Below are positions 475 through 15,586 of a stretch of 19,177 nt of DNA, piece by piece. Origin of the DNA: a virus (taxonomy: Duplodnaviria; Heunggongvirae; Uroviricota; Caudoviricetes); IMG/VR virus record IMGVR_UViG_638341196_000003. One strand, given 5' to 3'. Every line of letters begins with the position of its first letter. Position 1 is the first letter of the stretch. Made by a program: the position numbers and the translations under genes. The notes under the pieces are model-generated. The model was not told the origin of the DNA and made no database searches. It saw only the letters and a program-made list of their open reading frames with translations.

Positions 475-1002
475 ATGCAGCATTTAAAAAATATTACGGC
501 GGGTAATCCAAAAACGGTTGAACAATATCAATTGACAAAGGACTTTGATGTTGTCTGGTTTTTTTCAGAAGATGGTAAGAACTGGTACGAAGAACAAAAG
601 TATTTTGCTGATGACACGATAAAAATAGCGTACGACAAAGATAATATCATCCACTATGTGGAAAAGGATGTGACAGCTATCAGACCGGATGGATTAAGTG
701 TTGTTGAAGTGGCGGATATTACTGCTAACCGACGGGCGGACATTTCAGGGAACTGGATGTTTAAGGACGGCAAAGTGATTAAACGCGTTTATACGGCAGA
801 GGAATTACAGCAGCAGGCAGAAATTCGGAAAGCCAGACTTCTTGCAGATGCTGAATCCGTGATTTTGCCGCTGGAGCGCGCGGTCAGACTGAACATGGCA
901 ACAGATGAGGAGCGTAGCCGACTGGAATCATGGGAACGCTACAGCGTTCTGGTCAGTCGTGTGGATCCTGCAAATCCTGAATGGCCGGAAATGCCGCAAT
1001 AA
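475..1002 (+). CDS. Tail fiber assembly protein (P2 gpG-like chaperone)
   Basis: 175-aa ORF directly after the fiber gene, same length as P2 gpG; C-terminal ...[12 protein letters not shown] resembles Tfa-type chaperones. Identity is from recall, not a search. Confidence 0.7.
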
Positions 1003-1042
1003 GTTGTATTAGCTTACATATCTATGGCACAGAGTAAAGCCT

Positions 1043-1087
1043 AATCTGATAGTCCGCTCTGTGCCAGGAGCAGACATTGCCAACGTT
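1043..1087. repeat. Copy 1 of a ~30-38 bp repeat family (core TGTGCCAGGAGC-R-GAC-R-TTGCCA), about 40 bp after the G stop
   Basis: Hand alignment: 1052-1087 matches 5062-5097 at about 30 of 38 positions (direct); 1043-1080 matches the reverse complement of 10722-10759 at 31 of 38. Confidence 0.5.
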
Positions 1088-1470
1088 ATGACCCTCGATT
1101 ACATCAAAGAGCCCTATAGCCGAAACCTGCACCATAGCCATCTCTGTAGAATTCGTCCTAGGGGCTTTTAACAGACCTAGTTGTATGGATCGGAAGGAAA
1201 TATTAAAGCTCAAGGCGTCAGTCCAGTGCTGTCCTGTTTGCTTACCACACGAAAGAGTGCTGCTTGTACCTGCTAACTAATGGTATGCGGAGTGAGGGGG
1301 GCGGGTAGAACCAAAAGCACTTACTACGTGTGGCGCTCTCCTGGAAGAGGAGACGTCGAAGTGATAACGCTAACAACAGTCTTACTGGTGATGCAAATAA
1401 TGCTAGCTGGTCTGGTTGCCATCAAGCAACTGACCGGACGCCCGTAAGGGATGGAGGAACTTGATTAAAG

Positions 1471-1492
1471 GCAGGGGGGTTACCTCCCCTGC
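1471..1492 (+). terminator. Stem-loop of an intrinsic terminator split by IS2; its U-tract continues at 2829-2840
   Basis: GCAGGGG(G)...CCCCTGC stem ends exactly at the IS2 left junction. Removing IS2 and one copy of the CCTGC duplication gives GCAGGGGGGTTACCTCCCCTGC followed by CTTTTTTCGTTT. Confidence 0.5.
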
Positions 1493-1583
1493 TAGACTGG
1501 CCCCCTGAATCTCCAGACAACCAGTATCACTTAAATAAGTGATAGTCTTAATACTAGTTTTTAGACTAGTCATTGGAGTACAG

Positions 1584-1949
1584 ATGATTGATGTCTTAGG
1601 GCCGGAGAAACGCAGACGGCGTACCACACAGGAAAAGATCGCAATTGTTCAGCAGAGCTTTGAACCGGGGATGACGGTCTCCCTCGTTGCCCGGCAACAT
1701 GGTGTAGCAGCCAGCCAGTTATTTCTCTGGCGTAAGCAATACCAGGAAGGAAGTCTTACTGCTGTGGCCGCCGGAGAACAGGTTGTTCCTGCCTCTGAAC
1801 TTGCTGCCGCCATGAAGCAGATTAAAGAACTCCAGCGCCTGCTCGGCAAGAAAACGATGGAAAATGAACTCCTCAAAGAAGCCGTTGAATATGGACGGGC
1901 AAAAAAGTGGATAGCGCACGCGCCCTTATTGCCCGGGGATGGGGAGTAA
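1584..1949 (+). CDS. insC: IS2 transposase OrfA (InsC)
   Basis: 121-aa product [26 protein letters not shown]... with helix-turn-helix; ATG is the 16th codon of the listed ORF 1539-1949. Confidence 0.9.
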
Positions 1950-2812
1950 GCTTAGTCAGCCGTTGTCTCCGGGTGTCGCGTGCGCAGTTGCACGTCATTC
2001 TCAGACGAACCGATGACTGGATGGATGGCCGCCGCAGTCGTCACACTGATGATACGGATGTGCTTCTCCGTATACACCATGTTATCGGAGAGCTGCCCAC
2101 GTATGGTTATCGTCGGGTATGGGCGCTGCTTCGCAGACAGGCAGAACTTGATGGTATGCCTGCGATCAATGCCAAACGTGTTTACCGGATCATGCGCCAG
2201 AATGCGCTGTTGCTTGAGCGAAAACCTGCTGTACCGCCATCGAAACGGGCACATACAGGCAGAGTGGCCGTGAAAGAAAGCAATCAGCGATGGTGCTCTG
2301 ACGGGTTCGAGTTCTGCTGTGATAACGGAGAGAGACTGCGTGTCACGTTCGCGCTGGACTGCTGTGATCGTGAGGCACTGCACTGGGCGGTGACTACCGG
2401 CGGCTTCAACAGTGAAACAGTACAGGACGTCATGCTGGGAGCGGTGGAACGCCGCTTCGGCAACGATCTTCCGTCGTCTCCAGTGGAGTGGCTGACGGAT
2501 AATGGTTCATGCTACCGGGCTAATGAAACACGCCAGTTCGCCCGGATGTTGGGACTTGAACCGAAGAACACGGCGGTGCGGAGTCCGGAGAGTAACGGAA
2601 TAGCAGAGAGCTTCGTGAAAACGATAAAGCGTGACTACATCAGTATCATGCCCAAACCAGACGGGTTAACGGCAGCAAAGAACCTTGCAGAGGCGTTCGA
2701 GCATTATAACGAATGGCATCCGCATAGTGCGCTGGGTTATCGCTCGCCACGGGAATATCTGCGGCAGCGGGCTTGTAATGGGTTAAGTGATAACAGATGT
2801 CTGGAAATATAG
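1907..2812 (+). CDS. insD: IS2 transposase OrfB (InsD), DDE catalytic domain; normally made as an OrfAB fusion by -1 frameshifting
   Basis: 301-aa ORF overlapping orfA; A6G slippery run (GCAAAAAAGTGG) near 1896-1905; C-terminal [12 protein letters not shown] motif typical of the IS3 family. Confidence 0.9.
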
Positions 2813-2856
2813 GGGCAAATCCACCTGCCTTTTTTCGTTTCTGCGCAAGTTAGCTC

Positions 2857-2868
2857 TGTTATTATAAT
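2857..2868 (+). promoter_or_regulatory. Putative sigma70 -10 region (TGTTATTATAAT, extended -10 like) for the downstream 227-aa ORF
   Basis: TG-n-TATTAT / TATAAT hexamers 30-40 bp upstream of the ATG at 2899, immediately right of the IS2 end; no clear -35. Confidence 0.3.
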
Positions 2869-2898
2869 CCTTACTCACACTGTAAGGACATAGTTCAA

Positions 2899-3582
2899 AT
2901 GACTGAATGGCTTAATGCACATTTTGGTGCAGACGCAGCTACCTATCTTAGCTTATTAGTCGGCGTACTGGCACTGTTTGGTATTGGGGGCGGTGTTACA
3001 TATAGAATCAGACAGCAAAACAACATAAAACAGAAGGCAAAGAAAACCGAGGGTGATGTGAACCAGGCCGGGCGGGATATTAATCAGACCACCAACGTTT
3101 ACCACACATCCAATGAATCTACTGAGGACCCTGTAAAAAAAAAGCAAGATGAACATGATCTGAAGATAATCGACCAGATCCTTGAATTGCTGCCTTATGA
3201 GGATACTACTCAATGGGTTGAGCAGAGCTACCTGAGCGGTATACGGCAAGATGTTTGCTTAAACATTGAAAAAGCTGAAAAATTTAGCGGTGAAAAGTAT
3301 CGGTTATTCAATACTGAAGTGAATGGTGCGAAAGACGCTTTTTTGGACGCTATGACCGCATACGTAGATAGTACGCTACCATTTATGAGTGTTGATTACC
3401 CGAACAGAAAGCCAGTGATGCTAAGCCTTCCCCATGACTGGAAGAGTAAGAGTGTTGAATCGGAGGCAAACTTCCGCTTTCATCAGCAAAATGTGCGTGA
3501 AACATCGGGGGGGATGATTGCGCGCTATGAGGATTTTGTCAGGACATTTAAGGCTCATGGATTCATAAGCGATAAACTGTAA
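2899..3582 (+). CDS. Hypothetical membrane-anchored protein (227 aa): one N-terminal transmembrane helix, charged linker, soluble C-terminal domain; non-phage cargo
   Basis: Intact ORF with ATG start; hydrophobic segment YLSLLVGVLALFGIGGGV at residues ~16-33, then a Lys/Glu-rich linker. Own promoter-like region upstream and an intrinsic terminator downstream (rebuilt across the IS10-like insertion). No family recognised. Confidence 0.5.
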   Translation: MTEWLNAHFGADAATYLSLLVGVLALFGIGGGVTYRIRQQNNIKQKAKKTEGDVNQAGRDINQTTNVYHTSNESTEDPVKKKQDEHDLKIIDQILELLPYEDTTQWVEQSYLSGIRQDVCLNIEKAEKFSGEKYRLFNTEVNGAKDAFLDAMTAYVDSTLPFMSVDYPNRKPVMLSLPHDWKSKSVESEANFRFHQQNVRETSGGMIARYEDFVRTFKAHGFISDKL

Positions 3583-3675
3583 AGGCGCAGTGGGTCAGCG
3601 AACACCGCAACGACAGAACCGCGTAAGCGGTAAAATCAGCTTGTTAACTGGCGAGTTTATAGCCGTCCCTCCGGG

Positions 3676-4976
3676 CTGAGGGATCCCCACAAAATTACTG
3701 CTAATAAACCAGCACCATATTTCGGTAGGTTCTGGACAGATGGTTTAGAACTGTGCTCAGTACTGTTCGTCTTAAAATAAGTGGCGAGTGTCGAAGAACA
3801 TTCTTCGCTAACGTCAGATATGAGATAACCCGCCGGGATTTAATGCTGTTAGCCTGATATTTCAGGTGTAACCCTTTATTTTCAGCGTGATAACCGAGTA
3901 ACCACATTACGATAGTGCTCAACGTTGCCAGCAGACTCAGAACCAGAATTCTTCCTGTTGAACGACTTTTGCTGGCCCGAAGACCAAATCCGAAGCGCCC
4001 GTTCTTTTCATCACGAAAGTTTTGCTCTATCTGCATTCGCCGACTGTATAACTTGATGATTTCTCGCGCTCTGAAGTCATTTGTACTGCTGAAGATCAAC
4101 CAGGCTTCTTTTGCTGATTTGCTCTGTTCTTTGTCTGTTTTGTTTAAACCACTCTGACCTTTCGAACGTTTCTTTTTTCGCCCTTTTGCCGATTTCTTAT
4201 AGGTGTAAAAATGCCCCCGGATGCTTTTTTTCCTTTCTTTAACCAGCCTTCCAGCCTCCATATATTCCGGTGTTTTACATTCAGGGCTATCCGACACTTT
4301 TAACCATCTTTCAGGCGCGTTATCGAGGCAATACTGAACGTTATTTCTGATCCGACCAATAAAATCCCAGCCCAGAGAAGTAATATGGTGAAACCATGCG
4401 CTCTGAAATCCAGCATCCGTGACAATAATAACCCTGGCATCGGGGGGCAGGGATTGAGCAAGGGAATCAAGGAAATCATGTTGTATCAATGGATTATTTT
4501 GTTTTTCAGAAGGAACAACCTTACTCAATAACGGAATGGAACGCCCGTCACACAGAAGGCTGGCACGAAGAACATGATGCTCCTGGGAGGGATAGCCACT
4601 CCAGTCTACGGCTATTACACATAAAGATAACTGCCGTGTCAGCATTGAAGTGATATTCCTGAAAATCATTGGAATATCGCGATGGAGCGCCTCATTACCC
4701 ATGAGGCGATCAATACGTTTGCTCTTATTCTTAACTTGTGCATTACCCGGGAAAAAACGTCCGATACTGGTCAGCGTCAGAGATGCTCCGTTGATTAACG
4801 CCACTGTGGCATCCATCAGGGCATTTTGTCGGTACTGATGAAATGGTGCTAAGGCATCCCGGAAGAAATTCTGACATACTTTATGAACAGGCATAGCAGT
4901 GATCTCATTGAATTGTTGGCACAAATCAGTAGATCACATAATGCTATGTCTGTCTCGTTTTCTGGGAATTCCTCAG
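3676..4976 (-). mobile_element. IS4-family, IS10-like insertion sequence (1301 bp)
   Basis: Imperfect terminal inverted repeats CTGAGGGATCCCCACAAAATT (left) and CTGAGGAATTCCCAGAAAACG (right, reverse complement), 17 of 23 matching, resembling the IS10 end CTGATGAATCCCC. Perfect 9-bp duplication CCCTCCGGG at 3667-3675 and 4977-4985. Confidence 0.7.
3701..4924 (-). CDS. IS4-family (IS10 group-like) DDE transposase, 407 aa
   Basis: Shares landmarks with IS10 transposase as recalled (KRIDRLxGN, VDWS, RAS...GRS, DAGF, IYSxRMQIEQxFRD); stop 25 bp from the left inverted repeat. Confidence 0.85.
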   Translation of the reverse strand: MCQQFNEITAMPVHKVCQNFFRDALAPFHQYRQNALMDATVALINGASLTLTSIGRFFPGNAQVKNKSKRIDRLMGNEALHRDIPMIFRNITSMLTRQLSLCVIAVDWSGYPSQEHHVLRASLLCDGRSIPLLSKVVPSEKQNNPLIQHDFLDSLAQSLPPDARVIIVTDAGFQSAWFHHITSLGWDFIGRIRNNVQYCLDNAPERWLKVSDSPECKTPEYMEAGRLVKERKKSIRGHFYTYKKSAKGRKKKRSKGQSGLNKTDKEQSKSAKEAWLIFSSTNDFRAREIIKLYSRRMQIEQNFRDEKNGRFGFGLRASKSRSTGRILVLSLLATLSTIVMWLLGYHAENKGLHLKYQANSIKSRRVISYLTLAKNVLRHSPLILRRTVLSTVLNHLSRTYRNMVLVY

Positions 4977-5061
4977 CCCTCCGGGGCGGCTTTTTTATGA
5001 CTATAATCGACAGAATCACCTGAACGTCCAGGTGGGTTTCCCTGACAGGACGTCAAGGAAT

Positions 5062-5097
5062 GTTCGCTTTGTGCCAGGAGCGGACGTTGCCAGCATT
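5062..5097. repeat. Copy 2 of the repeat family, direct relative to copy 1, about 150 bp upstream of the 261-aa ORF
   Basis: Hand alignment to 1052-1087, about 30 of 38 identical, including an uninterrupted TGTGCCAGGAGC. Confidence 0.5.
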
Positions 5098-5246: not shown

Positions 5247-6032
5247 ATGTACGATTATAGTTTTTTACTTACTCCATCTACAGGATTTGTTAAAGGATTA
5301 TGTGGAGTTTGGTCGAATGATTTCTCTATAAATGATGATTCTGACTCTGATTTAGGGCAAACAGATATTCATTTACTTTCATCTCCTCATTTGAATATCA
5401 TATCCGACCCAAATGAATTGGCTTCCAAGTTAAAAGGTTTGTTGATGCTCATGAACGGCGCACTTAGCGTTCTTTATGGTTTTGAAAGATATCAATCTTT
5501 TGGTCCTCTTTCTATTTCTGGAAGTGAAGGCATTAATTACTCGGAAATATGCGGCTTTAAATCAATGGATGTAACTCAGGTAAACCCCTTTAATTTCCAT
5601 GACATACAGCAACCACACCCTCGCGCTGATAATTTTTCACGATTAATTAATTTATCATCTAAACATGAATCCTTACGTGTTGTTTTAGGTATGTGTGCCT
5701 TAGGTTATGATTGGGTTAATCTTTATCGTTTGTGGGAAACAATTAGAGAATATGTATATGATAAATATGTGAAAGGTATACTAAATTTCCCCGACGCTTA
5801 TAAAGGCAAGAAATATCAGAGAGATAAAGTAATTAGCATGGCTTTTAATATTGATGAAAAGGAAATCAGCAGATTCACGGGCACTGCTAATAGCTTTGAA
5901 CTGTTAGGGTATCTTGCGAGACATGGAAAGGGAAGTTCCGGAGGGATATTAAAAAATCCGATGTCAAGAGTTGACGCAAGCATTTTCGTACACAAAGCAA
6001 CTTACAAATATTGTAAGTTATTTTTGATGTAA
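5247..6032 (+). CDS. Hypothetical protein (261 aa), AT-rich non-phage cargo gene
   Basis: Intact ORF with ATG and an upstream AGAGGGA ribosome-binding site; the gene and its upstream region are visibly AT-rich compared with the flanking tail genes. No transmembrane segment or recognisable motif. Confidence 0.5.
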   Translation: MYDYSFLLTPSTGFVKGLCGVWSNDFSINDDSDSDLGQTDIHLLSSPHLNIISDPNELASKLKGLLMLMNGALSVLYGFERYQSFGPLSISGSEGINYSEICGFKSMDVTQVNPFNFHDIQQPHPRADNFSRLINLSSKHESLRVVLGMCALGYDWVNLYRLWETIREYVYDKYVKGILNFPDAYKGKKYQRDKVISMAFNIDEKEISRFTGTANSFELLGYLARHGKGSSGGILKNPMSRVDASIFVHKATYKYCKLFLM

Positions 6033-6124
6033 GTAAAAAGTTGAAGCTATAATACTCAAAGTATCGAAAACTACGTTCGTCGTGCACTCGAAAACAATAT
6101 GCTTATTGTGTCTGCACTAATTAC

Positions 6125-6161
6125 TCAAGGTCCGAGAAAAATGGCGAAGCTCATCTTTTTC
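6125..6161 (-). terminator. Intrinsic terminator serving the minus-strand HNH-like gene (hairpin GGCGAAGC/GCTTCGCC followed on the minus strand by AUUUUUCUC)
   Basis: Perfect 8-bp inverted repeat at 6133-6140 and 6154-6161, about 33 nt past the stop at 6194-6196; lies between two convergent cargo genes. Confidence 0.45.
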
Positions 6162-6193
6162 AGGCTTCGCCAACTTGAGTTATTGGTTAAAAT

Positions 6194-6372
6194 TCATTTA
6201 GGAATAATAGAATGCAATTCGTGACTCACCTGGATTTCATAGTGTTTCAATAGTTCTCCGATGTTAATTCCTACTACCTTACGAACTGCGCCGAGGGAGA
6301 AGTTAAGCTCCTCAATGCCCGGCCGATCTGGCGTTGAATTCATATAGTGTCGGCACGCACGGACAATTGACT
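6194..6372 (-). pseudogene. 3' segment (last 58 codons plus stop) of the HNH-like cargo gene interrupted by the IS911-like element
   Basis: Minus-strand frame at 6370 continues in phase the frame ending at 8845 once the IS and one copy of the ACT duplication are removed. The N-terminal residues of listed ORF 6194-6451 lie inside the IS end and are an artefact. Confidence 0.6.
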
Positions 6373-6380
6373 TGAAGTGG

Positions 6381-8509
<2,129 letters not shown>

Positions 8510-8510
8510 G

Positions 8511-8772
8511 TAGCCTTTTTTAATATTTCATTCTCCATTTCAATGCGTTGTAGCTTTTTCCTCAGCTTACGTATTTCGATTTGTTCTGGTGTTATCGGAG
8601 AGGCTTTTGGTGTTTTGCCCTGACGCTCATCACGCAGTTGTTTGACCCATCTTGTCATTGTGGAAAGGCCAACATCCATAGCTTTGGCGGCATCTGCCAC
8701 CGTGTATTTCTGGTCAACAACCAGTTGAGCGGATTCGCGTTTAAACTCTGCGCTAAAATTTCTTTTTTTCAT
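8511..8772 (-). pseudogene. IS911-like orfA, 5' portion (codons 1-88) cut by IS30; the last 12 codons and stop resume at 7288-7247
   Basis: [56 protein letters not shown]...EILKKAT, then IS30; downstream of IS30 the frame reads [12 protein letters not shown]-stop. Confidence 0.8.
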
Positions 8773-8844
8773 TGGAGCACCTGTGTTGTTCTGAGGCGAG
8801 CATATCACCTCTGTTCAGGTGGCCAAATTCAGTGTGCCACTTCA

Positions 8845-9421
8845 ACTCGACGATCAACGATAGCGGAGACTCAGGTGCAATCTCGGAGCGAATCGCCGTA
8901 AGAGAGAGTCGGAGCTCCTTCAAAGAATCCGAGACTCGTGCTGGATCCTCTTGAGCATATGGCAGATAAAGAGAACTCTTGTCTTCCAATAAATGGATCA
9001 ACCGCAGAGCAATTTTCTCGTCTGGGCGATGCGATAGAAATTGAAACATTAGCCTCTTTCCTCCCTCCAAGCACTCCTTCATTAGTGATTCGTGGTTACG
9101 TTTCCATTTTCGCAAATACTCGGCGGGGTAGCCCATACCGCCATTCTTATCAACTAAATCAGCACAAGCTCCGCACAACCATATAGCATTTTTTATGCTC
9201 TTCCGCTCTGTTTCTGACTGAGACATGTCATAGCGCGGTCCGCCAGGGCTCGCCGCGCAGATATGCGCCGCCTCACCCGTCTTGATAGAAAGATTTTCCG
9301 CCAATTGATCCGGGCCGATTGTTACCCTATGACAAGAGGGATTGCTACAAATATATGTAGCGCGCTCTGCTACCTTACCTACAACGCTTGGAGGAAAGTT
9401 GTGCCTATTTGTCTTGGTCAT
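8845..9421 (-). pseudogene. 5' segment (codons 1-192) of the HNH-like cargo gene interrupted by the IS911-like element
   Basis: ATG at 9421; product carries CSNPSCH...GEAAHICAASPGG...NAIWLCGACADLVD, an HNH-type Cys/His/Asn signature with non-canonical substitutions. The tail of listed ORF 8753-9421 beyond 8845 is read-through into the IS. Confidence 0.6.
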
Positions 9422-9492
9422 AAAAGTTATGCTTCTTTGTTTTTTTCATCTATGTGGGGAGAATAAAATCATACTTTTTATATCTGATCCTA

Positions 9493-10645
9493 AATAGCTG
9501 CGCTTAATACCGCTACACTTTTGCCAGTCCATGTTTGCCTCCGGGGAATGGGCTGACGGTTTCCATAAAATGGCGAACTTTTTTCAACAGTTGCCACATT
9601 GAGCGGCACTGATGATTACGCGTTATTGTGTCGTGAAGTGCCTGCCATAGCCGTTCAACATGATTCACCCATGGCGAGTAAACCGGCTGATAAATGACCC
9701 TGAACTTCGGGTTCTCCTTCAGCCAGCTCTGTGTTTCCCGGCTTTTGTGGATAATGTAGTTGTCCACGATCAGCGTGATGGTTTTCGCCCGACGGTATGT
9801 CGCTTTAAGCCGCTTCAGCAGGCTGATGAACAGCGCCGAACTTTTGCTGTTGCCGCCCACATAGCTGACTTTACCTGTCCCGCTGTGCAGCGCTCCGGCC
9901 AGATAATATTTTTCATTCTGTCCCGGCGTGACCACCCGTTTTTGCTGTCCGCGCAGTTGCCAGTCCGCACCGATTTTGGGATGAAGATGGATATCCACTT
10001 CATCTTCATAAAAGACCGGATGCTCTGCGCTGCATTCGTCCAGTGCTTTATGGATTGCTGCCATCTTTTCATCTTTATGCGGGTCACGGATACGCAGAGT
10101 TGGCGCAGCCCTTCGCCACACAATCCCCGCAGACGGCAACCAGCGGCGAACGGTTCCGGCATTTAACTGGCAACCGGTTATCTCATTGATTTTTATTGCC
10201 AGCAGTTCTGTACTCCAGCGTGAACGCTGGTAGACAAAGTCGCCGGGAGAATGTTTTACCAGCTCACGTAACAGTGTGCAGATATGCTCAAACGGCCAGC
10301 GACGGGCACGCCCGGCAGGTAATGATTTCAGTCCCTCAACACCCGACTGCGTGAACCAGTTAATCCAGCGTCCAACAGAGGAACGGGCGCAGCAGAGCGT
10401 TCTGGCAACGTCGCTGACACGGTCGCCCCGGTGCAGCATCAGCATGGCAGTCAGTCTGCGGGCATAATTTTTATCGTGTGTTTTATGGATGGCTTTCTGC
10501 ATCAGGCGTCGTTCGTCACGGGAAATTGGTGCTATGATCGGCATTGCTCAGTCCGGTTGGTGATTTGTTTTGATTTGGCGATTGATCAGATCGCACAATC
10601 CGGGCTAAGTTCCCTCAAAATGATCTACTATTCCGCGCAGCTATT
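9493..10645 (-). mobile_element. IS630 insertion sequence, complete (1153 bp)
   Basis: 343-aa transposase; imperfect terminal inverted repeats (AATAGCTGCGC...); flanking TA duplication at 9491-9492 and 10646-10647; reconstructed target GATCCTAGGTCTG contains CTAG. Confidence 0.9.
9513..10544 (-). CDS. IS630 (Tc1/mariner superfamily) transposase
   Basis: 343-aa product MPIIAPISRDERRLMQKAIHKTHDKNYARRL... matches IS630 transposase from recall. Confidence 0.9.
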   Translation of the reverse strand: MPIIAPISRDERRLMQKAIHKTHDKNYARRLTAMLMLHRGDRVSDVARTLCCARSSVGRWINWFTQSGVEGLKSLPAGRARRWPFEHICTLLRELVKHSPGDFVYQRSRWSTELLAIKINEITGCQLNAGTVRRWLPSAGIVWRRAAPTLRIRDPHKDEKMAAIHKALDECSAEHPVFYEDEVDIHLHPKIGADWQLRGQQKRVVTPGQNEKYYLAGALHSGTGKVSYVGGNSKSSALFISLLKRLKATYRRAKTITLIVDNYIIHKSRETQSWLKENPKFRVIYQPVYSPWVNHVERLWQALHDTITRNHQCRSMWQLLKKVRHFMETVSPFPGGKHGLAKV

Positions 10646-10721
10646 TAGGTCTGACCAGCAACCTATTGATCAAAAAACCAAGATATTAGCTAAAAAAAAT
10701 CAGCATACTTGAGACCAAGCT

Positions 10722-10759
10722 CAATGTCCGCTCCTCGCTCAAAGCAGACTGTCAGATTT
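10722..10759. repeat. Copy 3 of the repeat family, inverted relative to copy 1, about 180 bp upstream of FI
   Basis: 10722-10759 matches the reverse complement of 1043-1080 at 31 of 38 positions by hand alignment. Confidence 0.5.
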
Positions 10760-10819
10760 GATAGCATTTGGGCTATGTAAATTGTCAGGCGGAAAATGAG
10801 TGAGTACAAATCAGGACAG

Positions 10820-10849
10820 GCGGGCGAATTGCCCGCATTTTCTTTATCT
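10820..10849 (+). terminator. Terminator-like hairpin (GCGGGC-GAATT-GCCCGC followed by ATTTTCTTTATCT) upstream of FI
   Basis: Perfect 6-bp GC stem with 5-nt loop and a T-rich tail on the + strand; could insulate the FI late operon from the cargo island. Confidence 0.35.
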
Positions 10850-10941
10850 GTTGTTTCATCCCCTGACCAGCCAGGTCAAATAGCGTCTCATGCTCTGCAC
10901 AACAGAAAATAGTTGCACCCATTAACCACGGAGTTAAACGG

Positions 10942-12132
10942 ATGAGTGACTATCATCACGGCGTGCAGGTGCTGGAGATTAACGACGGCACCCGCGTCAT
11001 TTCCACCGTATCCACGGCCATTGTCGGCATGGTCTGCACGGCCAGCGATGCAGATGCGGAAACCTTCCCCCTCAATAAACCGGTGCTGATTACCAATGTG
11101 CAGAGCGCAATTGCAAAGGCCGGTAAAAAAGGCACGCTGGCGGCGTCGTTACAGGCCATCGCTGACCAGTCAAAACCGGTCACCGTTGTTGTGCGCGTGG
11201 AAGACGGCACCGGCGACGACGAAGAAACGAAGCTCGCGCAGACCGTTTCCAATATCATCGGCACCACCGACGAAAACGGTCAGTACACCGGACTGAAAGC
11301 CCTGCTGGCGGCGGAGTCGGTAACCGGTGTTAAACCGCGCATTCTCGGTGTGCCGGGACTGGATACCAAAGAGGTGGCTGTTGCACTGGCATCAGTCTGT
11401 CAGAAGCTGCGCGCTTTCGGGTATATCAGCGCATGGGGCTGTAAAACCATTTCCGAGGTGAAAGCCTACCGCCAGAATTTCAGCCAGCGTGAGCTGATGG
11501 TCATCTGGCCGGATTTCCTCGCATGGGATACGGTCACCAGTACCACCTCCACCGCGTATGCCACCGCCCGTGCGCTGGGGCTGCGCGCTAAAATCGACCA
11601 GGAGCAGGGCTGGCATAAAACGCTGTCCAACGTCGGGGTGAACGGTGTTACCGGCATCAGCGCGTCCGTATTCTGGGATTTGCAGGAGTCCGGCACCGAT
11701 GCTGACCTGCTTAACGAGTCAGGCGTCACAACGCTGATTCGCCGTGACGGTTTCCGCTTCTGGGGTAACCGTACCTGCTCTGATGACCCGCTGTTCCTCT
11801 TTGAAAACTACACCCGCACCGCGCAGGTGCTGGCCGACACGATGGCTGAGGCGCACATGTGGGCGGTGGACAAGCCCATCACCGCAACGCTGATTCGCGA
11901 CATCGTTGACGGCATCAATGCCAAATTCCGTGAGCTGAAAACAAACGGCTATATCGTGGATGCGACCTGCTGGTTCAGCGAAGAATCCAACGATGCGGAA
12001 ACCCTCAAGGCCGGAAAACTGTATATCGACTACGACTATACACCGGTGCCTCCTCTCGAAAACCTGACCCTGCGCCAGCGTATTACCGATAAATACCAGG
12101 CAAATCTGGTCACCTCGGTTAACAGCAATTAA
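10942..12132 (+). CDS. FI: Contractile tail sheath protein (P2 gpFI-like)
   Basis: 396-aa ORF, same length as P2 FI; position and order match the P2 FI-FII-E-T-U-D cluster. Confidence 0.9.
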   Translation: MSDYHHGVQVLEINDGTRVISTVSTAIVGMVCTASDADAETFPLNKPVLITNVQSAIAKAGKKGTLAASLQAIADQSKPVTVVVRVEDGTGDDEETKLAQTVSNIIGTTDENGQYTGLKALLAAESVTGVKPRILGVPGLDTKEVAVALASVCQKLRAFGYISAWGCKTISEVKAYRQNFSQRELMVIWPDFLAWDTVTSTTSTAYATARALGLRAKIDQEQGWHKTLSNVGVNGVTGISASVFWDLQESGTDADLLNESGVTTLIRRDGFRFWGNRTCSDDPLFLFENYTRTAQVLADTMAEAHMWAVDKPITATLIRDIVDGINAKFRELKTNGYIVDATCWFSEESNDAETLKAGKLYIDYDYTPVPPLENLTLRQRITDKYQANLVTSVNSN

Positions 12133-12144
12133 GGAGCCTGACCG

Positions 12145-12662
12145 ATGGCAATGCCGCGCAAACTCAAGTTAATGAACGTCTTTCTGAACGGCTACAGCTA
12201 TCAGGGCGTTGCAAAGTCCGTCACGCTGCCAAAACTGACCCGTAAACTCGAAAACTATCGCGGTGCGGGGATGAACGGAAGCGCACCGGTAGACCTCGGC
12301 CTTGATGACGATGCGCTGTCAATGGAGTGGTCGCTCGGGGCTTCCCGGATTCGGTTATCTGGGAGCTCTACGCCGCAACCGGCGTGGATGCCGTACCGAT
12401 TCGTTTTGCTGGCTCTTACCAGCGCGACGATACCGGCGAAACGGTGGCCGTCGAGGTGGTCATGCGTGGCCGTCAGAAAGAAATCGACACCGGCGAGGGG
12501 AAACAGGGAGAAGACACCGAGTCGAAAATCTCCGTGGTCTGCACCTATTTCCGGCTGACGATGGACGGTAAGGAGCTGGTCGAAATCGACACCATCAACA
12601 TGATTGAGAAGGTGAACGGTGTCGACCGGCTGGAGCAACACCGCCGCAATATCGGCCTGTGA
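12145..12662 (+). pseudogene. FII: Tail tube protein (P2 gpFII-like), frame disrupted near 12337-12340
   Basis: N-terminal 62 codons in frame 1 (…LSMEWSLG), remainder in the overlapping frame (GFPDSVIWELYAAT…) of listed ORFs 12145-12558 and 12327-12662. The break sits in a G4 run where one more G would restore a ~172-aa protein. Confidence 0.6.
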
Positions 12663-12718
12663 TTTTCATCCGGTCAGCCAGGCTGACCGGTTAACCCTGA
12701 TTCAGAAGTGAGAAAACC

Positions 12719-12994
12719 ATGAACAAAGAAAATGTGATTACCCTGGACAATCCGGTCAAGCGTGGTGAGCAGGTTATCGAACAGGTCACGCTGATGAAAC
12801 CCAATGCCGGGACGCTGCGCGGTGTCAGTCTGGCTGCGGTCGCAAACTCCGAAGTCGATGCACTGATTAAGGTGCTGCCGCGCATGACGGCACCGATGCT
12901 GACCGAGCAGGAAGTCGCCGCGCTGGAACTGCCTGACCTTGTGGCGCTGGCCGGTAAGGTGGTCGGTTTTTTGTCGCCGAACTCGGTGCAGTAA
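12719..12994 (+). CDS. E: Tail assembly chaperone (P2 gpE-like)
   Basis: 91-aa ORF between the tube and tape measure genes; contains the slippery run GGTTTTTTG near its 3' end. Confidence 0.75.
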   Translation: MNKENVITLDNPVKRGEQVIEQVTLMKPNAGTLRGVSLAAVANSEVDALIKVLPRMTAPMLTEQEVAALELPDLVALAGKVVGFLSPNSVQ

Positions 12995-13146
12995 CGTTCC
13001 CGAAAAATCTGTCGGTCGATGAGCTGATGGCGGATGTGGCAGTGATATTTCACTGGCCGCCATCAGAACTGTATCCCATGAGTCTGACCGAACTCATCAC
13101 ATGGCGCGAAAAGGCGCTCCGGCGAAGCGGAAACACGAATGAGTAA
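12719..13146 (+). CDS. Tail assembly chaperone frameshift product (P2 gpE+E'-like) made by programmed -1 frameshift
   Basis: From the T6G run at 12967-12973 the -1 frame stays open to a stop at 13144-13146 (…FFVAELGAVTFPKNLSVDELMADVAVIFHWPPSELYPMSLTELITWREKALRRSGNTNE), overlapping the tape measure start. Confidence 0.55.
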
Positions 13147-15586
13147 CAATGTAAAATTACAGGTATTGCTCAGGGCTGTTGACCAGGCATCCCGCCCGTT
13201 TAAATCCATCCGCACAGCGAGCAAGTCGCTGTCGGGGGATATCCGGGAAACACAAAAATCACTGCGCGAGCTGAACGGTCACGCATCCCGTATTGAGGGA
13301 TTTCGCAAGACCAGTGCACAGCTCGCCGTGACTGGTCATGCACTTGAAAAGGCACGGCAGGAGGCCGAAGCCCTTGCCACACAGTTTAAAAACACCGAAC
13401 GTCCCACCCGTGCTCAGGCGAAAGTGCTGGAATCCGCAAAGCGTGCGGCGGAGGACTTACAGGCGAAATATAACCGCCTGACGGATTCCGTTAAACGCCA
13501 GCAGCGGGAACTGGCCGCTGTGGGAATTAATACCCGCAATCTTGCACATGATGAGCAGGGACTGAAAAACCGTATCAGTGAAACCACCGCACAACTTAAC
13601 CGTCAGCGCGACGCGCTGGCGCGTGTCAGTGCGCAACAGGCAAAACTTAACGCAGTAAAACAGCGTTATCAGGCCGGAAAGGAACTGGCCGGAAATATGG
13701 CCTCAGTAGGCGCTGCCGGTGTGGGGATTGCGGCGGCGGGAACGATGGCCGGAGTTAAGTTGCTGATGCCCGGTTATGAGTTTGCGCAGAAAAACTCAGA
13801 ATTGCAGGCCGTGCTAGGAGTGGCAAAAGACTCCGCCGAAATGGCCGCGCTACGCAAGCAGGCGCGCCAGCTCGGTGACAATACCGCCGCCTCAGCGGAT
13901 GATGCGGCCGGTGCGCAGATTATCATTGCGAAAGCGGGTGGAGATGTTGATGCCATTCAGGCGGCAACGCCGGTCACGCTGAATATGGCGCTGGCGAACC
14001 GCCGCACGATGGAAGAAAACGCCGCCCTGCTGATGGGGATGAAATCCGCCTTTCAGCTTTCAAACGATAAGGTTGCTCATATCGGGGATGTTCTCTCCAT
14101 GACGATGAACAAAACCGCCGCCGATTTTGACGGCATGAGCGATGCGCTGACCTATGCCGCACCTGTGGCAAAAAATGCCGGTGTCAGCATTGAAGAAACC
14201 GCCGCAATGGTCGGGGCACTGCATGATGCAAAAATTACCGGTTCAATGGCGGGGACGGGAAGCCGTGCCGTGTTAAGCCGCCTGCAGGCACCGACGGGAA
14301 AAGCATGGGATGCACTGAAAGAGCTTGGTGTGAAAACCTCAGACAGCAAGGGAAACACCCGGCCAGTATTTACCATTCTGAAAGAAATGCAGGCCAGTTT
14401 TGATAAAAACCGGCTCGGTACTGCCCAGCAGGCTGAATACATGAAAACCATTTTCGGGGAGGAGGCCAGCTCAGCCGCTGCTGTGCTGATGACTGCCGCC
14501 TCAACCGGAAGGCTGGACAAACTGACCGCTGCGTTTAAAGCCTCAGACGGGAAGACCGCGGAGCTGGTAAATATCATGCAGGACAACCTCGGCGGTGACT
14601 TTAAGGAGTTTCAGTCCGCTTATGAGGCGGTAGGGACTGACCTGTTTGACCAGCAGGAAGGCGCGCTGCGTAAGCTCACGCAGACGGCCACAAAGTATGT
14701 GTTAAAACTCGACGGCTGGATACAGAAAAACAAATCACTGGCGTCAACTATCGGCCTCATTGCCGGTGGCGCACTGGTGCTGACTGGCATCATCGGTGCC
14801 ATTGGTCTTGTAGCCTGGCCGGTTATCACCGGCATCAATGCCATTATCGCGGCAGCAGGCGCAATGGGGGCAATCTTCACGACGGTTGGCAGTGCTGTTA
14901 TGACGGCCATCGGGGCGATTAGCTGGCCGGTTGTGGCCGTGGTGGCCGCCATTGTCGCCGGGGCGTTGCTTATCCGTAAATACTGGGAGCCTGTCAGCGT
15001 ATTCTTCGGCGGTGTGGTTGAAGGGCTGAAAGCGGCATTTGCGCCGGTGGGGGAACTGTTCACGCCACTTAAGCCGGTGTTTGACTGGCTGGGTGAAAAG
15101 TTACAGGCCGCGTGGCAGTGGTTTAAAAACCTGATTGCACCGGTCAAAGCCACCCAGGACACCCTGAACCGTTGCCGTGACACGGGCGTCATGTTCGGGC
15201 AGGCACTGGCTGACGCGCTGATGCTGCCGCTTAATGCGTTCAACAAACTGCGCAGCGGTATTGACTGGGTACTGGAAAAACTCGGCGTCATCAACAAAGA
15301 GTCAGACACACTTGACCAGACCGCCGCCAGAACTCATGCCGCCACGTATGGCACCGGTGGTTATATTCCGGCGACCAGCTCTTATGCAGGCTATCAGGCT
15401 TATCAGCCGGTCACGGCACCGGCTGGCCGCTCTTATGTGGACCAGAGTAAAAACGAATATCACATCAGCCTGACCGGTGGTACTGCGCCGGGGACACAGC
15501 TTGACCGCCAGTTACAGGATGCGCTCGAAAAATACGAGCGGGATAAACGAGCGCGCGCCCGTGCCAGCATGATGCATGACGGTTAA
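13139..15586 (+). CDS. T: Tail tape measure protein (P2 gpT-like)
   Basis: 815-aa ORF, Ala/Gly-rich with predicted coiled-coil and hydrophobic segments; same length and position as P2 T. Confidence 0.9.
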   Translation: MSNNVKLQVLLRAVDQASRPFKSIRTASKSLSGDIRETQKSLRELNGHASRIEGFRKTSAQLAVTGHALEKARQEAEALATQFKNTERPTRAQAKVLESAKRAAEDLQAKYNRLTDSVKRQQRELAAVGINTRNLAHDEQGLKNRISETTAQLNRQRDALARVSAQQAKLNAVKQRYQAGKELAGNMASVGAAGVGIAAAGTMAGVKLLMPGYEFAQKNSELQAVLGVAKDSAEMAALRKQARQLGDNTAASADDAAGAQIIIAKAGGDVDAIQAATPVTLNMALANRRTMEENAALLMGMKSAFQLSNDKVAHIGDVLSMTMNKTAADFDGMSDALTYAAPVAKNAGVSIEETAAMVGALHDAKITGSMAGTGSRAVLSRLQAPTGKAWDALKELGVKTSDSKGNTRPVFTILKEMQASFDKNRLGTAQQAEYMKTIFGEEASSAAAVLMTAASTGRLDKLTAAFKASDGKTAELVNIMQDNLGGDFKEFQSAYEAVGTDLFDQQEGALRKLTQTATKYVLKLDGWIQKNKSLASTIGLIAGGALVLTGIIGAIGLVAWPVITGINAIIAAAGAMGAIFTTVGSAVMTAIGAISWPVVAVVAAIVAGALLIRKYWEPVSVFFGGVVEGLKAAFAPVGELFTPLKPVFDWLGEKLQAAWQWFKNLIAPVKATQDTLNRCRDTGVMFGQALADALMLPLNAFNKLRSGIDWVLEKLGVINKESDTLDQTAARTHAATYGTGGYIPATSSYAGYQAYQPVTAPAGRSYVDQSKNEYHISLTGGTAPGTQLDRQLQDALEKYERDKRARARASMMHDG

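Follow-up and report, generated by a model that had tools for sequence, protein, structure and literature searches.

An IS2 insertion within the intrinsic terminator ahead of a cargo gene in a defective P2-like prophage

The locus described here raises the question of what becomes of an accessory gene when a transposable element parts the terminator that precedes it. It lies in a 19,177 nt stretch of Caudoviricetes DNA (the window, meaning the whole stretch analysed), where a sequence-only reading had placed an IS2 element inside an intrinsic (Rho-independent) terminator, T1, upstream of a gene for a 227-aa protein. The features concerned are as follows.

1468–1492, + strand: left half of the split T1, a complete stem–loop AAAGGCAGGGGGGTTACCTCCCCTGC, with IS2 next in place of the U-tract
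1488–1492: left copy of the 5 bp target-site duplication CCTGC
1493–2823, + strand: IS2 (from its ends, ORFs and profile match; anatomy compared with PMC3299598)
1493–1534: IRL of IS2
1540–1548: P_IRL of IS2, a weak extended −10 promoter, TGATAGTCT
1584–1949: orfA of IS2, open
1901–1907: A6G (AAAAAAG) slippery, −1 frameshift site of IS2
1907–2812: orfB of IS2, open and overlapping orfA
2783–2823: IRR of IS2
2824–2828: right copy of the 5 bp target-site duplication CCTGC
2829–2840, + strand: orphaned T1 U-tract CTTTTTTCGTTT, directly adjoining the hairpin wherever the empty site was read
2899–3582, + strand: 227-aa cargo gene; N-terminal membrane helix, C-terminal helical bundle

IS2 and the terminator that it divides

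Positions 1493–2823 of the window comprise an intact IS2 of exactly 1331 bp. Its imperfect terminal inverted repeats (42 and 41 bp; TAGACTGG... and ...CAAATCCA) were read at both ends and agree with the description in PMC3299598. Pfam searches of the ORFs return HTH_Tnp_1 for the helix–turn–helix of orfA, as well as rve and rve_3 for the DDE region of orfB, and OrfB, at 727.6 bits, clears the cut-off of 597 set for the NCBIfam model ‘IS2 transposase TnpB’. In length, repeats, A6G motif, DDE (rve) domain and 5 bp duplication, the element is like the IS2 (IS3 family, IS2 group) of E. coli and Shigella; of 44 other full-length copies compared, drawn from E. coli, Shigella and Klebsiella, 39 differ from it at 2–9 positions (99.3–99.8 % identity). 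The identification as IS2 with a CCTGC duplication is thus borne out, and, with regard to other IS2 insertions, the element is no different, only the site being particular. A canonical copy such as this would have arrived by the usual copy-out/paste-in route, generating the 5 bp duplication. Its transposase is oriented in the same direction as the 227-aa gene, and its right end lies 75 nt upstream of the ATG of that gene.

Removal of IS2 and one CCTGC yields GGCAGGGGGGTTACCTCCCCTGCC followed by TTTTTT (restored stretch AAAGGCAGGGGGGTTACCTCCCCTGCCTTTTTTCGTTT), which folds at −19.8 kcal/mol, or −23.2 kcal/mol with its A/U extension; the earlier description of a textbook intrinsic terminator is well founded on both the fold and the adjoining T-run. 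A terminator scan of IS-free loci returns T1 with 13 pairs, 8 of them G–C, and a 4 nt loop; its stem of 10–13 pairs is GC-rich and its loop short, as in intrinsic terminators, and at each empty site read TTTTTTCGTTT follows the stem without a gap. IS2-free relatives, comparison with which had been set as the test that might overturn the idea, instead support it. The uninterrupted site is a single match in 31 of 5,426 complete E. coli genomes; the empty site itself was read in 7 of these 31 and in two viral contigs, and in all of them hairpin and T-run are contiguous, with CCTGC present in single copy. Variation amongst the empty sites is minor: loss of one G, gain of one A, a loop shorter by one base, or T5 in place of T6. 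An Rfam search of positions 900–3700 (E ≤ 1) gave one sub-threshold chance match and no known RNA family over the leader or T1, and an exact scan of species-representative genomes found no copy of the 22 nt T1 hairpin.

The claim that IS2 sits exactly between stem and U-tract stands in part. The hairpin is indeed split from its U-tract, which is displaced by 1336 bp; the full stem, however, is one G–C pair longer than had been noted, so the insertion point of IS2 falls within the last stem pairs of this strong intrinsic terminator. As an effect of the duplication, the left copy retains a 9 bp stem (the left-junction fold at T1 is −21.5 kcal/mol), and the right copy retains CCTGCC and the T-run. 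From the end of the T-run to the ATG of the 227-aa gene is 63 nt, close to the 60 bp first estimated. Because hairpin and U-tract now lie 1.3 kb apart, and cannot act jointly as the sequence-only reading had recognized, T1 would, by the general mechanism of such elements, be unable to terminate as an intrinsic terminator.

Transcription towards the 227-aa gene

Whether this loss matters depends on what could now reach the 227-aa gene, and on what the gene has of its own, for which the following features are relevant.

475–1002, + strand: G-like gene for P2-type tail fibre assembly, closing the late operon upstream (Pfam Caudo_TAP, E = 1.5e-33)
2811–2832, + strand: weak hybrid hairpin AGGGGCA-AATCCACC-TGCCTTT, then TTTCGTTT, built from the terminus of IS2 and the duplicated arm of the T1 stem
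2857–2868, + strand: putative promoter of the 227-aa gene, an extended −10 TGTTATTAT overlapping TATAAT (from sequence and conservation)
2869–2887, + strand: 5′-UTR inverted repeat CCTTAC-N7-GTAAGG, overlapping the Shine–Dalgarno AAGGA (2884–2888)

The putative promoter is untouched by IS2 and lies 29 bp downstream of it. Alignment of homologues of the 227-aa protein with 46–59 % identity reveals a conserved TGnTAnnAT motif, and it is from this conservation that the promoter is assigned; a consensus promoter scan called none for the gene, with no good −35. In divergent homologues T1 is absent upstream, and the −10 region, Shine–Dalgarno and start codon are kept. For this reason a role for T1 as an attenuator or regulatory leader of the 227-aa gene was rejected. 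The 5′-UTR repeat retains its pairing, as G–U, in several strains that carry C2870T. With a conserved extended −10 of its own, the 227-aa gene would not need read-through for its expression. The protein itself has no match in Pfam, PADLOC, PHROG or NCBIfam, and a Foldseek search of PDB with its AlphaFold2 model (mean pLDDT 70) gave nothing at E ≤ 0.001.

Upstream of T1 lies, as previously proposed, a fibre operon with a P2-type pair of tail fibre (H) and fibre-assembly (G) genes, the G-like gene being annotated as a tail fiber assembly protein in matching prophages. As the sheath gene at 10942–12132 is homologous to annotated FI, the 227-aa gene is situated between G and FI of a P2-like prophage, with the same flanks as in phage P2, and the view of it as cargo holds, in the known G–FI (Z/fun) hotspot. 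This prophage is defective and decaying, in an IS-expanded, Shigella-like genome: a 1 nt deletion shifts the frame of the tail-tube gene and truncates its product, and five IS insertions occur within 9 kb. Given a defective prophage, late transcription of the fibre operon is unlikely to be of biological relevance. The suggestion that it might now read into the 227-aa gene is weakened further, since upstream transcripts must also cross 1.3 kb of IS2 and the gene has its own putative promoter. Classical IS2 insertions in the gal operon, as cited in PMC12095673 (refs 46 and 49), caused Rho-dependent polarity. There, as here, IS2 separates a gene from the transcription unit upstream of it; in the window, however, it replaces a terminator rather than interrupting an operon, so that its net effect on upstream read-through is probably neutral, one block being swapped for another.

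Transcription from IS2 itself was the other source proposed. In the ampC case (Jaurin and Normark 1983, as summarized in PMC9330008), a resident −10 lies 17 bp from the IS2 −35, and the Pjunc spacer requirement, 17 bp for IS2, is described in PMC3299598. The right end of IS2, with its outward −35 (TGGAAA, 2802–2807), likewise faces a downstream gene in the window, but the hexamers at 16, 17 and 18 bp (CCTGCC, CTGCCT and TGCCTT) include no −10, CTGCCT at 17 bp matching in 1 of 6 positions. A fusion promoter between IS2 and its flank is consequently ruled out. Read-out from the element's own weak promoter into the 227-aa gene is possible, as is an increase in transcription into the gene, given that 600 bp IS2 termini can activate a reporter placed downstream of them whatever the context (PMC5526668, the text of which does not specify the driving end). 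Transcripts leaving IS2 would also meet the hybrid hairpin at the right junction (7 pairs, 3 of them G–C, and an 8 nt loop in the terminator scan; −6.6 kcal/mol), possibly a leaky terminator. With a promoter of its own, no fusion promoter, 1.3 kb of IS2 to be crossed, and the hybrid hairpin followed by the old T-run, the consequence of the insertion for the 227-aa gene would probably be small.

It is improbable, therefore, that IS2 was selected here for raising 227-aa expression in the lysogen, or for making it constitutive, through loss of T1 and outward transcription, in favour of a protein likely to act in defence or exclusion. Co-orientation with the gene, at so short a distance, would suit this role, and IS2 is a documented activator of its neighbours, either by the outward −35 in IRR (PMC9330008) or by the 600 bp termini (PMC5526668). 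Nevertheless, the fusion promoter is impossible at this junction, the last 150 bp of the IS2 right end have no detectable promoter activity (PMC12095673), and P_IRL is a weak promoter under repression by OrfA (PMC3299598). In favour of such selection, too, the 227-aa gene is intact while the adjoining DUF6650 gene is disrupted; against it, the gene already has a conserved putative promoter, the insertion is found in a single lineage, with no second case amongst 5,426 E. coli genomes or metagenome contigs, and the prophage around it is decaying amid IS expansion.

Age of the insertion and choice of target

The IS2 junction at T1 is absent from all 5,426 complete E. coli genomes, and an exact scan of metagenome contigs for the left junction returned none. 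A viral contig 99.9 % identical to the window (L100) carries ISSfl1 and IS630, without IS2 and IS911::IS30, which indicates that IS2 arrived late. A 600 bp Shigella dysenteriae contig begins 4 nt after the right end of IS2, as fits an assembly break at a repeat. The event is recent, lineage-specific and ordinary. Overall, the locus is best explained, with good though not complete confidence, as a tolerated and essentially neutral hit by a canonical IS2 in non-coding DNA of a decaying prophage, and not as adaptive rewiring.

The terminator beyond the 227-aa gene, T2, is also interrupted.

3661–3675, + strand: left half of T2 (AGCCGTCCCTCCGGG), split by ISSfl1
3676–4976, − strand: ISSfl1 (IS4 family, 1301 bp), junctions mapped
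4977–4996, + strand: right half of T2 (CCCTCCGGGGCGGCTTTTTT)

In IS-free loci T2 is intact, as AGCCGTCCCTCCGGGGCGGCT followed by TTTTTT. ISSfl1 sits in its loop and inner stem, flanked by a 9 bp duplication, CCCTCCGGG (3667–3675 and 4977–4985). In addition, strain RS571 harbours an IS186/IS421-type element in T1, with a duplication of ~10 bp. Two of the four insertion events in this hotspot, those of IS2 and ISSfl1, strike the two terminators flanking the 227-aa gene, and a rough chance of at least two of four falling on hairpins is 0.002 to 0.01. Taken with the RS571 element, such a figure is a hint that targeting or selection, and not chance alone, was at work.

Structure-directed targeting would hold that several IS families, IS2 included, prefer terminator hairpins, in which a GC-rich palindrome stands beside an A/T tract. 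Three independent insertions from three families in the two hairpins of one gene (IS2 in T1, ISSfl1 in the loop of T2, IS186/IS421 in T1 of RS571) would be consistent with this. For IS186/IS421 the match is specific: T1 contains GGGG-TTACCT-CCCC, the published target is GGGG(N6/N7)CCCC, as at the lon promoter hotspot (PMC5009759), and the RS571 element struck exactly there. That, however, is another element in another strain, and IS2 has no such motif, none being apparent across 58 reconstructed duplications (PMC5009759). An IS2 study does suggest insertion near intrinsically bent DNA (PMC3299598). A survey of IS2 targets started from 70 left ends, which represented 46 distinct flanks; a clean duplication was seen at 15 other sites. 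Not one of the 15 is a hairpin with a T-run, although at one (L035) IS2 likewise abuts a short hairpin, CAGGGA..TCCCTTG, at its 3′ foot. The fetched loci contained no additional copy of ISSfl1 from which its preference might be judged. Survivorship, moreover, enriches IS hits in non-coding spacers, and IS2 is itself biased to non-coding DNA (29 of 71 new insertions; PMC5009759). With 0 of 15 sites terminator-like and no published motif, a preference of IS2 for terminators was rejected, and targeting of this kind across families is considered unlikely. Equally doubtful is the broader proposal that hairpins are preferred by IS2 (as they demonstrably are by IS186 and apparently, here, by ISSfl1) and that the paired loss of terminators is a selected rewiring, coupling the 227-aa membrane protein, in a P2 defence hotspot, to IS-borne or phage late transcription.

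The mobile cassette and a possible native role of T1

The sequence-only reading had implied that T1 terminates the fibre operon. In P2-like contexts T1 is the first + strand terminator after G, but it travels with a cassette ordered as leader, T1, 227-aa gene, T2, 261-aa gene and DUF6650 gene. In ~28 of the 31 genomes that cassette is found in a CP4-like island, where its neighbour is a divergent GTPase gene and no fibre operon precedes it. Besides such islands, an e14-like prophage and P2-like prophages also carry the cassette, T1 included, and in the one other P2-like prophage with different cargo that was checked, no + strand terminator lies between G and cargo. T1 therefore belongs to a mobile three-gene cassette, of which it would be the upstream insulator, and not to the phage. 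Amongst PADLOC models, those for PDC-M68A and endonuclease effectors match the DUF6650 protein, whilst none matches the 261-aa protein; in the window the DUF6650 gene is disrupted and the 227-aa gene intact.

Two further features of this region are listed below.

1051–1079, + strand: palindromic hotspot-boundary site GTCCGCTC-TGTGCCAG-GAGCAGAC, at which P2 homology stops and cassette homology starts
1361–1447, + strand: candidate 28-aa hydrophobic small ORF with a GTG start (Shine–Dalgarno GAGGAG, 1347–1352)

In CP4-like islands, T1 is preceded only by an unannotated leader containing the candidate 28-aa ORF. Its stop codon lies 20 nt before T1, and all three SNPs amongst cassette copies are synonymous, third-position changes; the peptide has no match in Pfam. 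From this weak evidence, the transcript natively ended by T1 may be that of the small ORF. That T1 is instead some other palindrome (a protein-binding site, a recombination site or an RNA-stabilizing 3′ structure), its splitting being without meaning for transcription, is highly improbable: upstream of it in the CP4-like context there is neither a + strand gene, annotated or obvious, nor a strong promoter, and other palindromic sites abound in the cassette, but T1 has every sequence hallmark of a terminator, with T6 directly after its stem, a second element of its kind (T2) follows the 227-aa gene, and an ORF with a strong Shine–Dalgarno ends just before it.

The module boundaries of the cassette always fall at the conserved palindrome, which also follows G in phage P2 and brackets the Z/fun hotspot there.

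Phage ‘morons’ are accessory genes that lie within a late operon but have a promoter of their own and a terminator on either side. The 227-aa gene resembles them in its putative promoter, two flanking intrinsic terminators and G–FI position, but in the window both terminators have been destroyed by ISs. Z/fun is an accessory hotspot of P2 (PMC13586616, PMC9122126), and transposable elements are reported to be almost absent from P2 hotspots (PMC13586616); this locus is exceptional in that respect because of prophage decay in an IS-expanded host.

The earlier interpretation is, overall, partly supported. At face value the finding matters little, being one more IS2 in a Shigella-type genome rich in ISs, where it occupies non-coding sequence of a dead prophage. 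It does, however, offer a tidy instance from nature of a terminator hairpin parted from its U-tract by an IS, for which a near-isogenic relative with an empty site exists (L100), and the locus is a convenient test case for changes in read-through, for leak from the right end of IS2 and for terminators as landing pads for ISs. Of greater interest than the insertion are its surroundings, where a cassette moves between P2-like prophages, an e14-like prophage and CP4-like islands, and where the palindrome at its boundary bears on how defence cargo is swapped at phage hotspots.

IS2 and the terminator that it divides

Features of the insertion, as read from the sequence:
1488-1492 and 2824-2828, direct repeat CCTGC on either side of IS2
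1493-2823, IS2, 1331 bp, starting TAGACTGGCCCCCTG and finishing GGGGCAAATCCA
1584-1949, IS2 orfA, 121 aa
1907-2812, IS2 orfB, 301 aa

The element has imperfect terminal repeats of 42/41 bp, and its two reading frames overlap at an AAAAAAG slippery site. Pfam places HTH_Tnp_1 in OrfA and rve/rve_3 in OrfB, the NCBIfam 'IS2 transposase TnpB' model scores 727.6 bits (cut-off 597), and among 44 full-length IS2 copies (E. coli, Shigella, Klebsiella), 39 differ from it at 2-9 positions. The element belongs fully to IS2, with all of the defining features tested present. Its transposition genes read in the same direction as the 227-aa cargo gene downstream, and a weak extended -10 promoter, TGATAGTCT, lies just inside its left end.

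In silico removal of IS2 and one CCTGC copy yields AAAGGCAGGGGGGTTACCTCCCCTGCCTTTTTTCGTTT, the terminator T1, with a G/C-rich stem of 10 bp (13 pairs with its A-U extension), a 4-nt loop and a T6 run ending 63 nt from the ATG of the 227-aa ORF. With a folding energy of -19.8 to -23.2 kcal/mol, restored T1 shows all the sequence features of an intrinsic terminator. In the window the hairpin now runs into UAGACUGG, and the U-tract is displaced by 1.3 kb. When an 800-nt reconstruction of the IS2-free locus was compared with 5,426 complete E. coli genomes, 31 returned a single unbroken match (98.6-99.8% identity). Empty sites were inspected in seven of these 31 genomes as well as in two IMG/VR viral contigs; the hairpin is contiguous with the T-run in all of them, and variation is confined to single-base length variants. 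The sequence-only reading, that IS2 with its CCTGC duplication splits a textbook terminator, is therefore upheld by the junctions, the restored sequence and the natural empty sites, none of the relatives inspected having an IS2-free sequence that lacks the contiguous hairpin and T-tract.

The IS2 junction at T1 is absent from all 5,426 complete E. coli genomes and from the metagenome contigs searched. A viral contig (L100, IMGVR_UViG_2531839178_000021; matching region 5959-13724) matches the window at 99.9% identity across 5 kb and harbours ISSfl1 and IS630, with neither IS2 nor the IS911::IS30 composite; IS2 is therefore a late arrival in one lineage. L100 also serves as a near-isogenic natural empty-site control and shows in which order the ISs were acquired. 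One Shigella dysenteriae contig, 600 bp long, has its first base 4 nt past the IS2 right end, as expected of a short-read assembly break at an IS2 repeat; this suggests that the window comes from S. dysenteriae or a near relative of it.

A mobile cassette in the G-FI hotspot

Features of the hotspot and its flanks:
475-1002, G, P2-type tail-fibre assembly protein gene
1051-1079 (+), 5061-5089 (+) and 10722-10750 (-), palindromic site of ~29 nt
1347-1447, candidate small gene, Shine-Dalgarno GAGGAG, GTG start at 1361, stop 20 nt ahead of T1
3676-4976, ISSfl1 (IS4 family), 1301 bp, 9-bp duplication CCCTCCGGG, centred on the T2 hairpin loop
6376-8844, IS911 interrupted by IS30, 2469-bp composite, cutting the DUF6650 gene at its 3' end
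9493-10645, IS630, 1153 bp with a 343-aa transposase, inserted at TA ~70 bp upstream of the DUF6650 gene
10942-12132, FI, tail sheath gene

All of the DNA between G and FI falls within the accessory hotspot (G-FI, or Z/fun) of a P2-like prophage, a known location of defence and accessory cargo (PMC13586616; PMC9122126). In IS-free relatives it holds a 3.4-kb cassette comprising, in order, a 400-nt leader, T1, the 227-aa gene, a second terminator (T2), a 261-aa gene and a convergent DUF6650 gene. T2 is strong in IS-free copies (AGCCGTCCCTCCGGGGCGGCT plus T6, -15.9 kcal/mol, 78 nt past the stop of the 227-aa gene). In most genomes the cassette, leader and T1 included, resides in CP4-like islands adjoining a divergent YeeP-type GTPase gene and Ag43; elsewhere it lies at the end of an e14-like or lambdoid prophage, or, in a few cases, in P2-like prophages. 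As T1 moves with the cassette across these contexts, it belongs to the cassette and is not the terminator of the fibre operon. The disrupted DUF6650 gene (8753-9421 (-) plus 6194-6375) encodes a protein matching the PADLOC candidate PDC-M68A (E = 6e-24) as well as CBASS/SAVED-HNH-type effector nuclease domains, and thus the cassette is probably defence-related. The hotspot carries five IS elements in total (IS2, ISSfl1, IS911, IS30 and IS630), and the 2469-bp composite recurs in 758 E. coli genomes. P2 hotspots are reported to contain almost no transposable elements (PMC13586616).

Every module boundary is marked by the conserved palindromic site (GTCCGCTC-TGTGCCAG-GAGCGGAC; 8-bp arms, 8-nt spacer), which separates the 227-aa and 261-aa modules and also stands at the cassette ends in CP4-like islands and the e14-like prophage; homology between contexts breaks in or beside it. 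Phage P2 (L099, 2604-2632 and 4199-4227) and most P2-like prophages checked carry it after G and, inverted, before FI, and it is present as well in loci L102, L103, L001, L003, L006 and L084. The 60 nt across the left-hand copy match 1,634 of the 5,426 E. coli genomes. Cargo exchange may run through this site, which has the look of a recombinase core or of a crossover point provided by short homology. In CP4-like islands a 200-aa tyrosine recombinase gene lies near it.

Within the cassette leader, the candidate small ORF would encode a hydrophobic 28-aa peptide, MITLTTVLLVMQIMLAGLVAIKQLTGRP, which has no family match and is annotated in no RefSeq genome. Its GAGGAG is sequestered within a predicted hairpin, and the three SNPs that distinguish cassette copies here (1396, 1423 and 1435) are all synonymous, third-position changes; in style it resembles a type I toxin.

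Transcription into the 227-aa gene

The insertion leaves intact the 70 nt from IS2 to the ATG of the 227-aa gene (2899-3582). This stretch contains an extended -10, TGTTATTAT(AAT), at 2857-2868, and alignment with the DNA upstream of homologues that have only 46-59% protein identity reveals conservation of TCTG-TA--AT, the Shine-Dalgarno and the start region; farther upstream, T1 included, the sequences are unrelated. The gene thus appears to have a putative promoter of its own. At 2869-2887 an inverted repeat, CCTTAC-N7-GTAAGG, overlaps the Shine-Dalgarno; the C2870T variant of several strains preserves the pairing as G-U, and homologues have another repeat, CTGAT..ATCAG, at the equivalent place, which suggests translational or operator control. 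The protein, predicted to have a membrane helix at its N terminus, then a disordered linker and a confidently modelled helical bundle, matched no family and no PDB fold. Its own family is small (16 clusters, 36-63% identity; Salmonella, Vibrio, Pseudoalteromonas and metagenomes), the members being found singly behind phage tail-fibre genes, next to KAP NTPase/Abi_2 genes, or within regions of conjugative elements.

With regard to transcription out of IS2, its own promoter is weak and OrfA-repressed (PMC3299598), and reporter results on outward activity conflict: termini of 600 bp drove strong, context-independent expression (PMC5526668), whereas no promoter activity was detected for the terminal 150 bp on the right (PMC12095673). 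Given these conflicting data, some read-out into the 227-aa gene is possible. Together, the end of IS2 and the duplicated arm of the stem would form a weak hairpin (AGGGGCA/TGCCTTT, 7 pairs, -6.6 kcal/mol) followed by the old T-run, probably a partial block to transcripts exiting IS2.

As for read-through from the fibre operon, the terminator scan of another P2-like prophage (cargo GapS4a/b) picked up no intrinsic terminator on the + strand from G to the cargo, and phage P2, by reading of the printed sequence, has after G a hairpin only, without a T-tract; for phages of this family, cargo that is not insulated from G is thus nothing out of the ordinary. Transcripts from upstream would need to cross IS2, which is classically polar according to references cited in PMC12095673. 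Moreover, the tail-tube gene FII (12145-12663) carries a 1-nt deletion at about 12336 relative to E. coli cM2a, a frameshift that leaves a product of 137 instead of 172 aa. The prophage is thus defective, which makes it unlikely that late transcription of the fibre operon has any biological importance. The proposed opening of the cargo gene to upstream transcription is supported in part: hairpin and U-tract do lie 1.3 kb apart, and the fibre-operon half is undercut.

An IS2 fusion promoter was ruled out, as the outward -35 TGGAAA (2802-2807), which gives rise to Pjunc in the minicircle when followed by a 17-bp spacer (PMC3299598), here faces CTGCCT at 17 bp instead of a -10.

Insertions into terminators

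T2 is likewise split, by ISSfl1 (split site 3661-4996), and thus both insulators of one gene have been destroyed by different ISs. In the CP4-like island of an unrelated strain, E. coli RS571 (L002, NZ_CP034389, about 4663 and 6001), an IS186/IS421 element lies within the T1 hairpin with a ~10-bp duplication, GGTTACCTCC; the T1 sequence GGGG-TTACCT-CCCC agrees with the published IS186 target GGGG-N6-CCCC (PMC5009759). Taken as a whole the locus is striking: if four insertions fell in the 3.7-kb hotspot, two would strike the ~63 bp of terminators with a rough probability of 0.002, or of 0.01 counting non-coding DNA only. IS186 is an established case of targeting and ISSfl1 a plausible one, but for IS2 the idea finds no support: 58 reconstructed IS2 duplications from a mutation-accumulation study show no motif, the one bias being to non-coding DNA, with 29 of 71 insertions (PMC5009759), and none of 15 duplication-flanked IS2 sites sampled has a hairpin and T-run. 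The position of IS2 at T1 is probably no more than chance, and the likeliest explanation of the terminator hits is targeting plus survivorship of insertions in non-coding DNA.

The arrangement is similar to classical polar IS2 insertions, but their defining feature is missing, no operon being interrupted, and to IS2 fusion-promoter cases, but without a correctly spaced -10. Insertion into palindromic or terminator sequences is already known, IS186 hotspots being an example, and no new kind of system is present. IS2 in T1 is an ordinary, recent insertion that happens to bisect a textbook terminator, and is probably neutral; the paired terminator hits, the palindromic boundary sites and the candidate small ORF may merit study in their own right.
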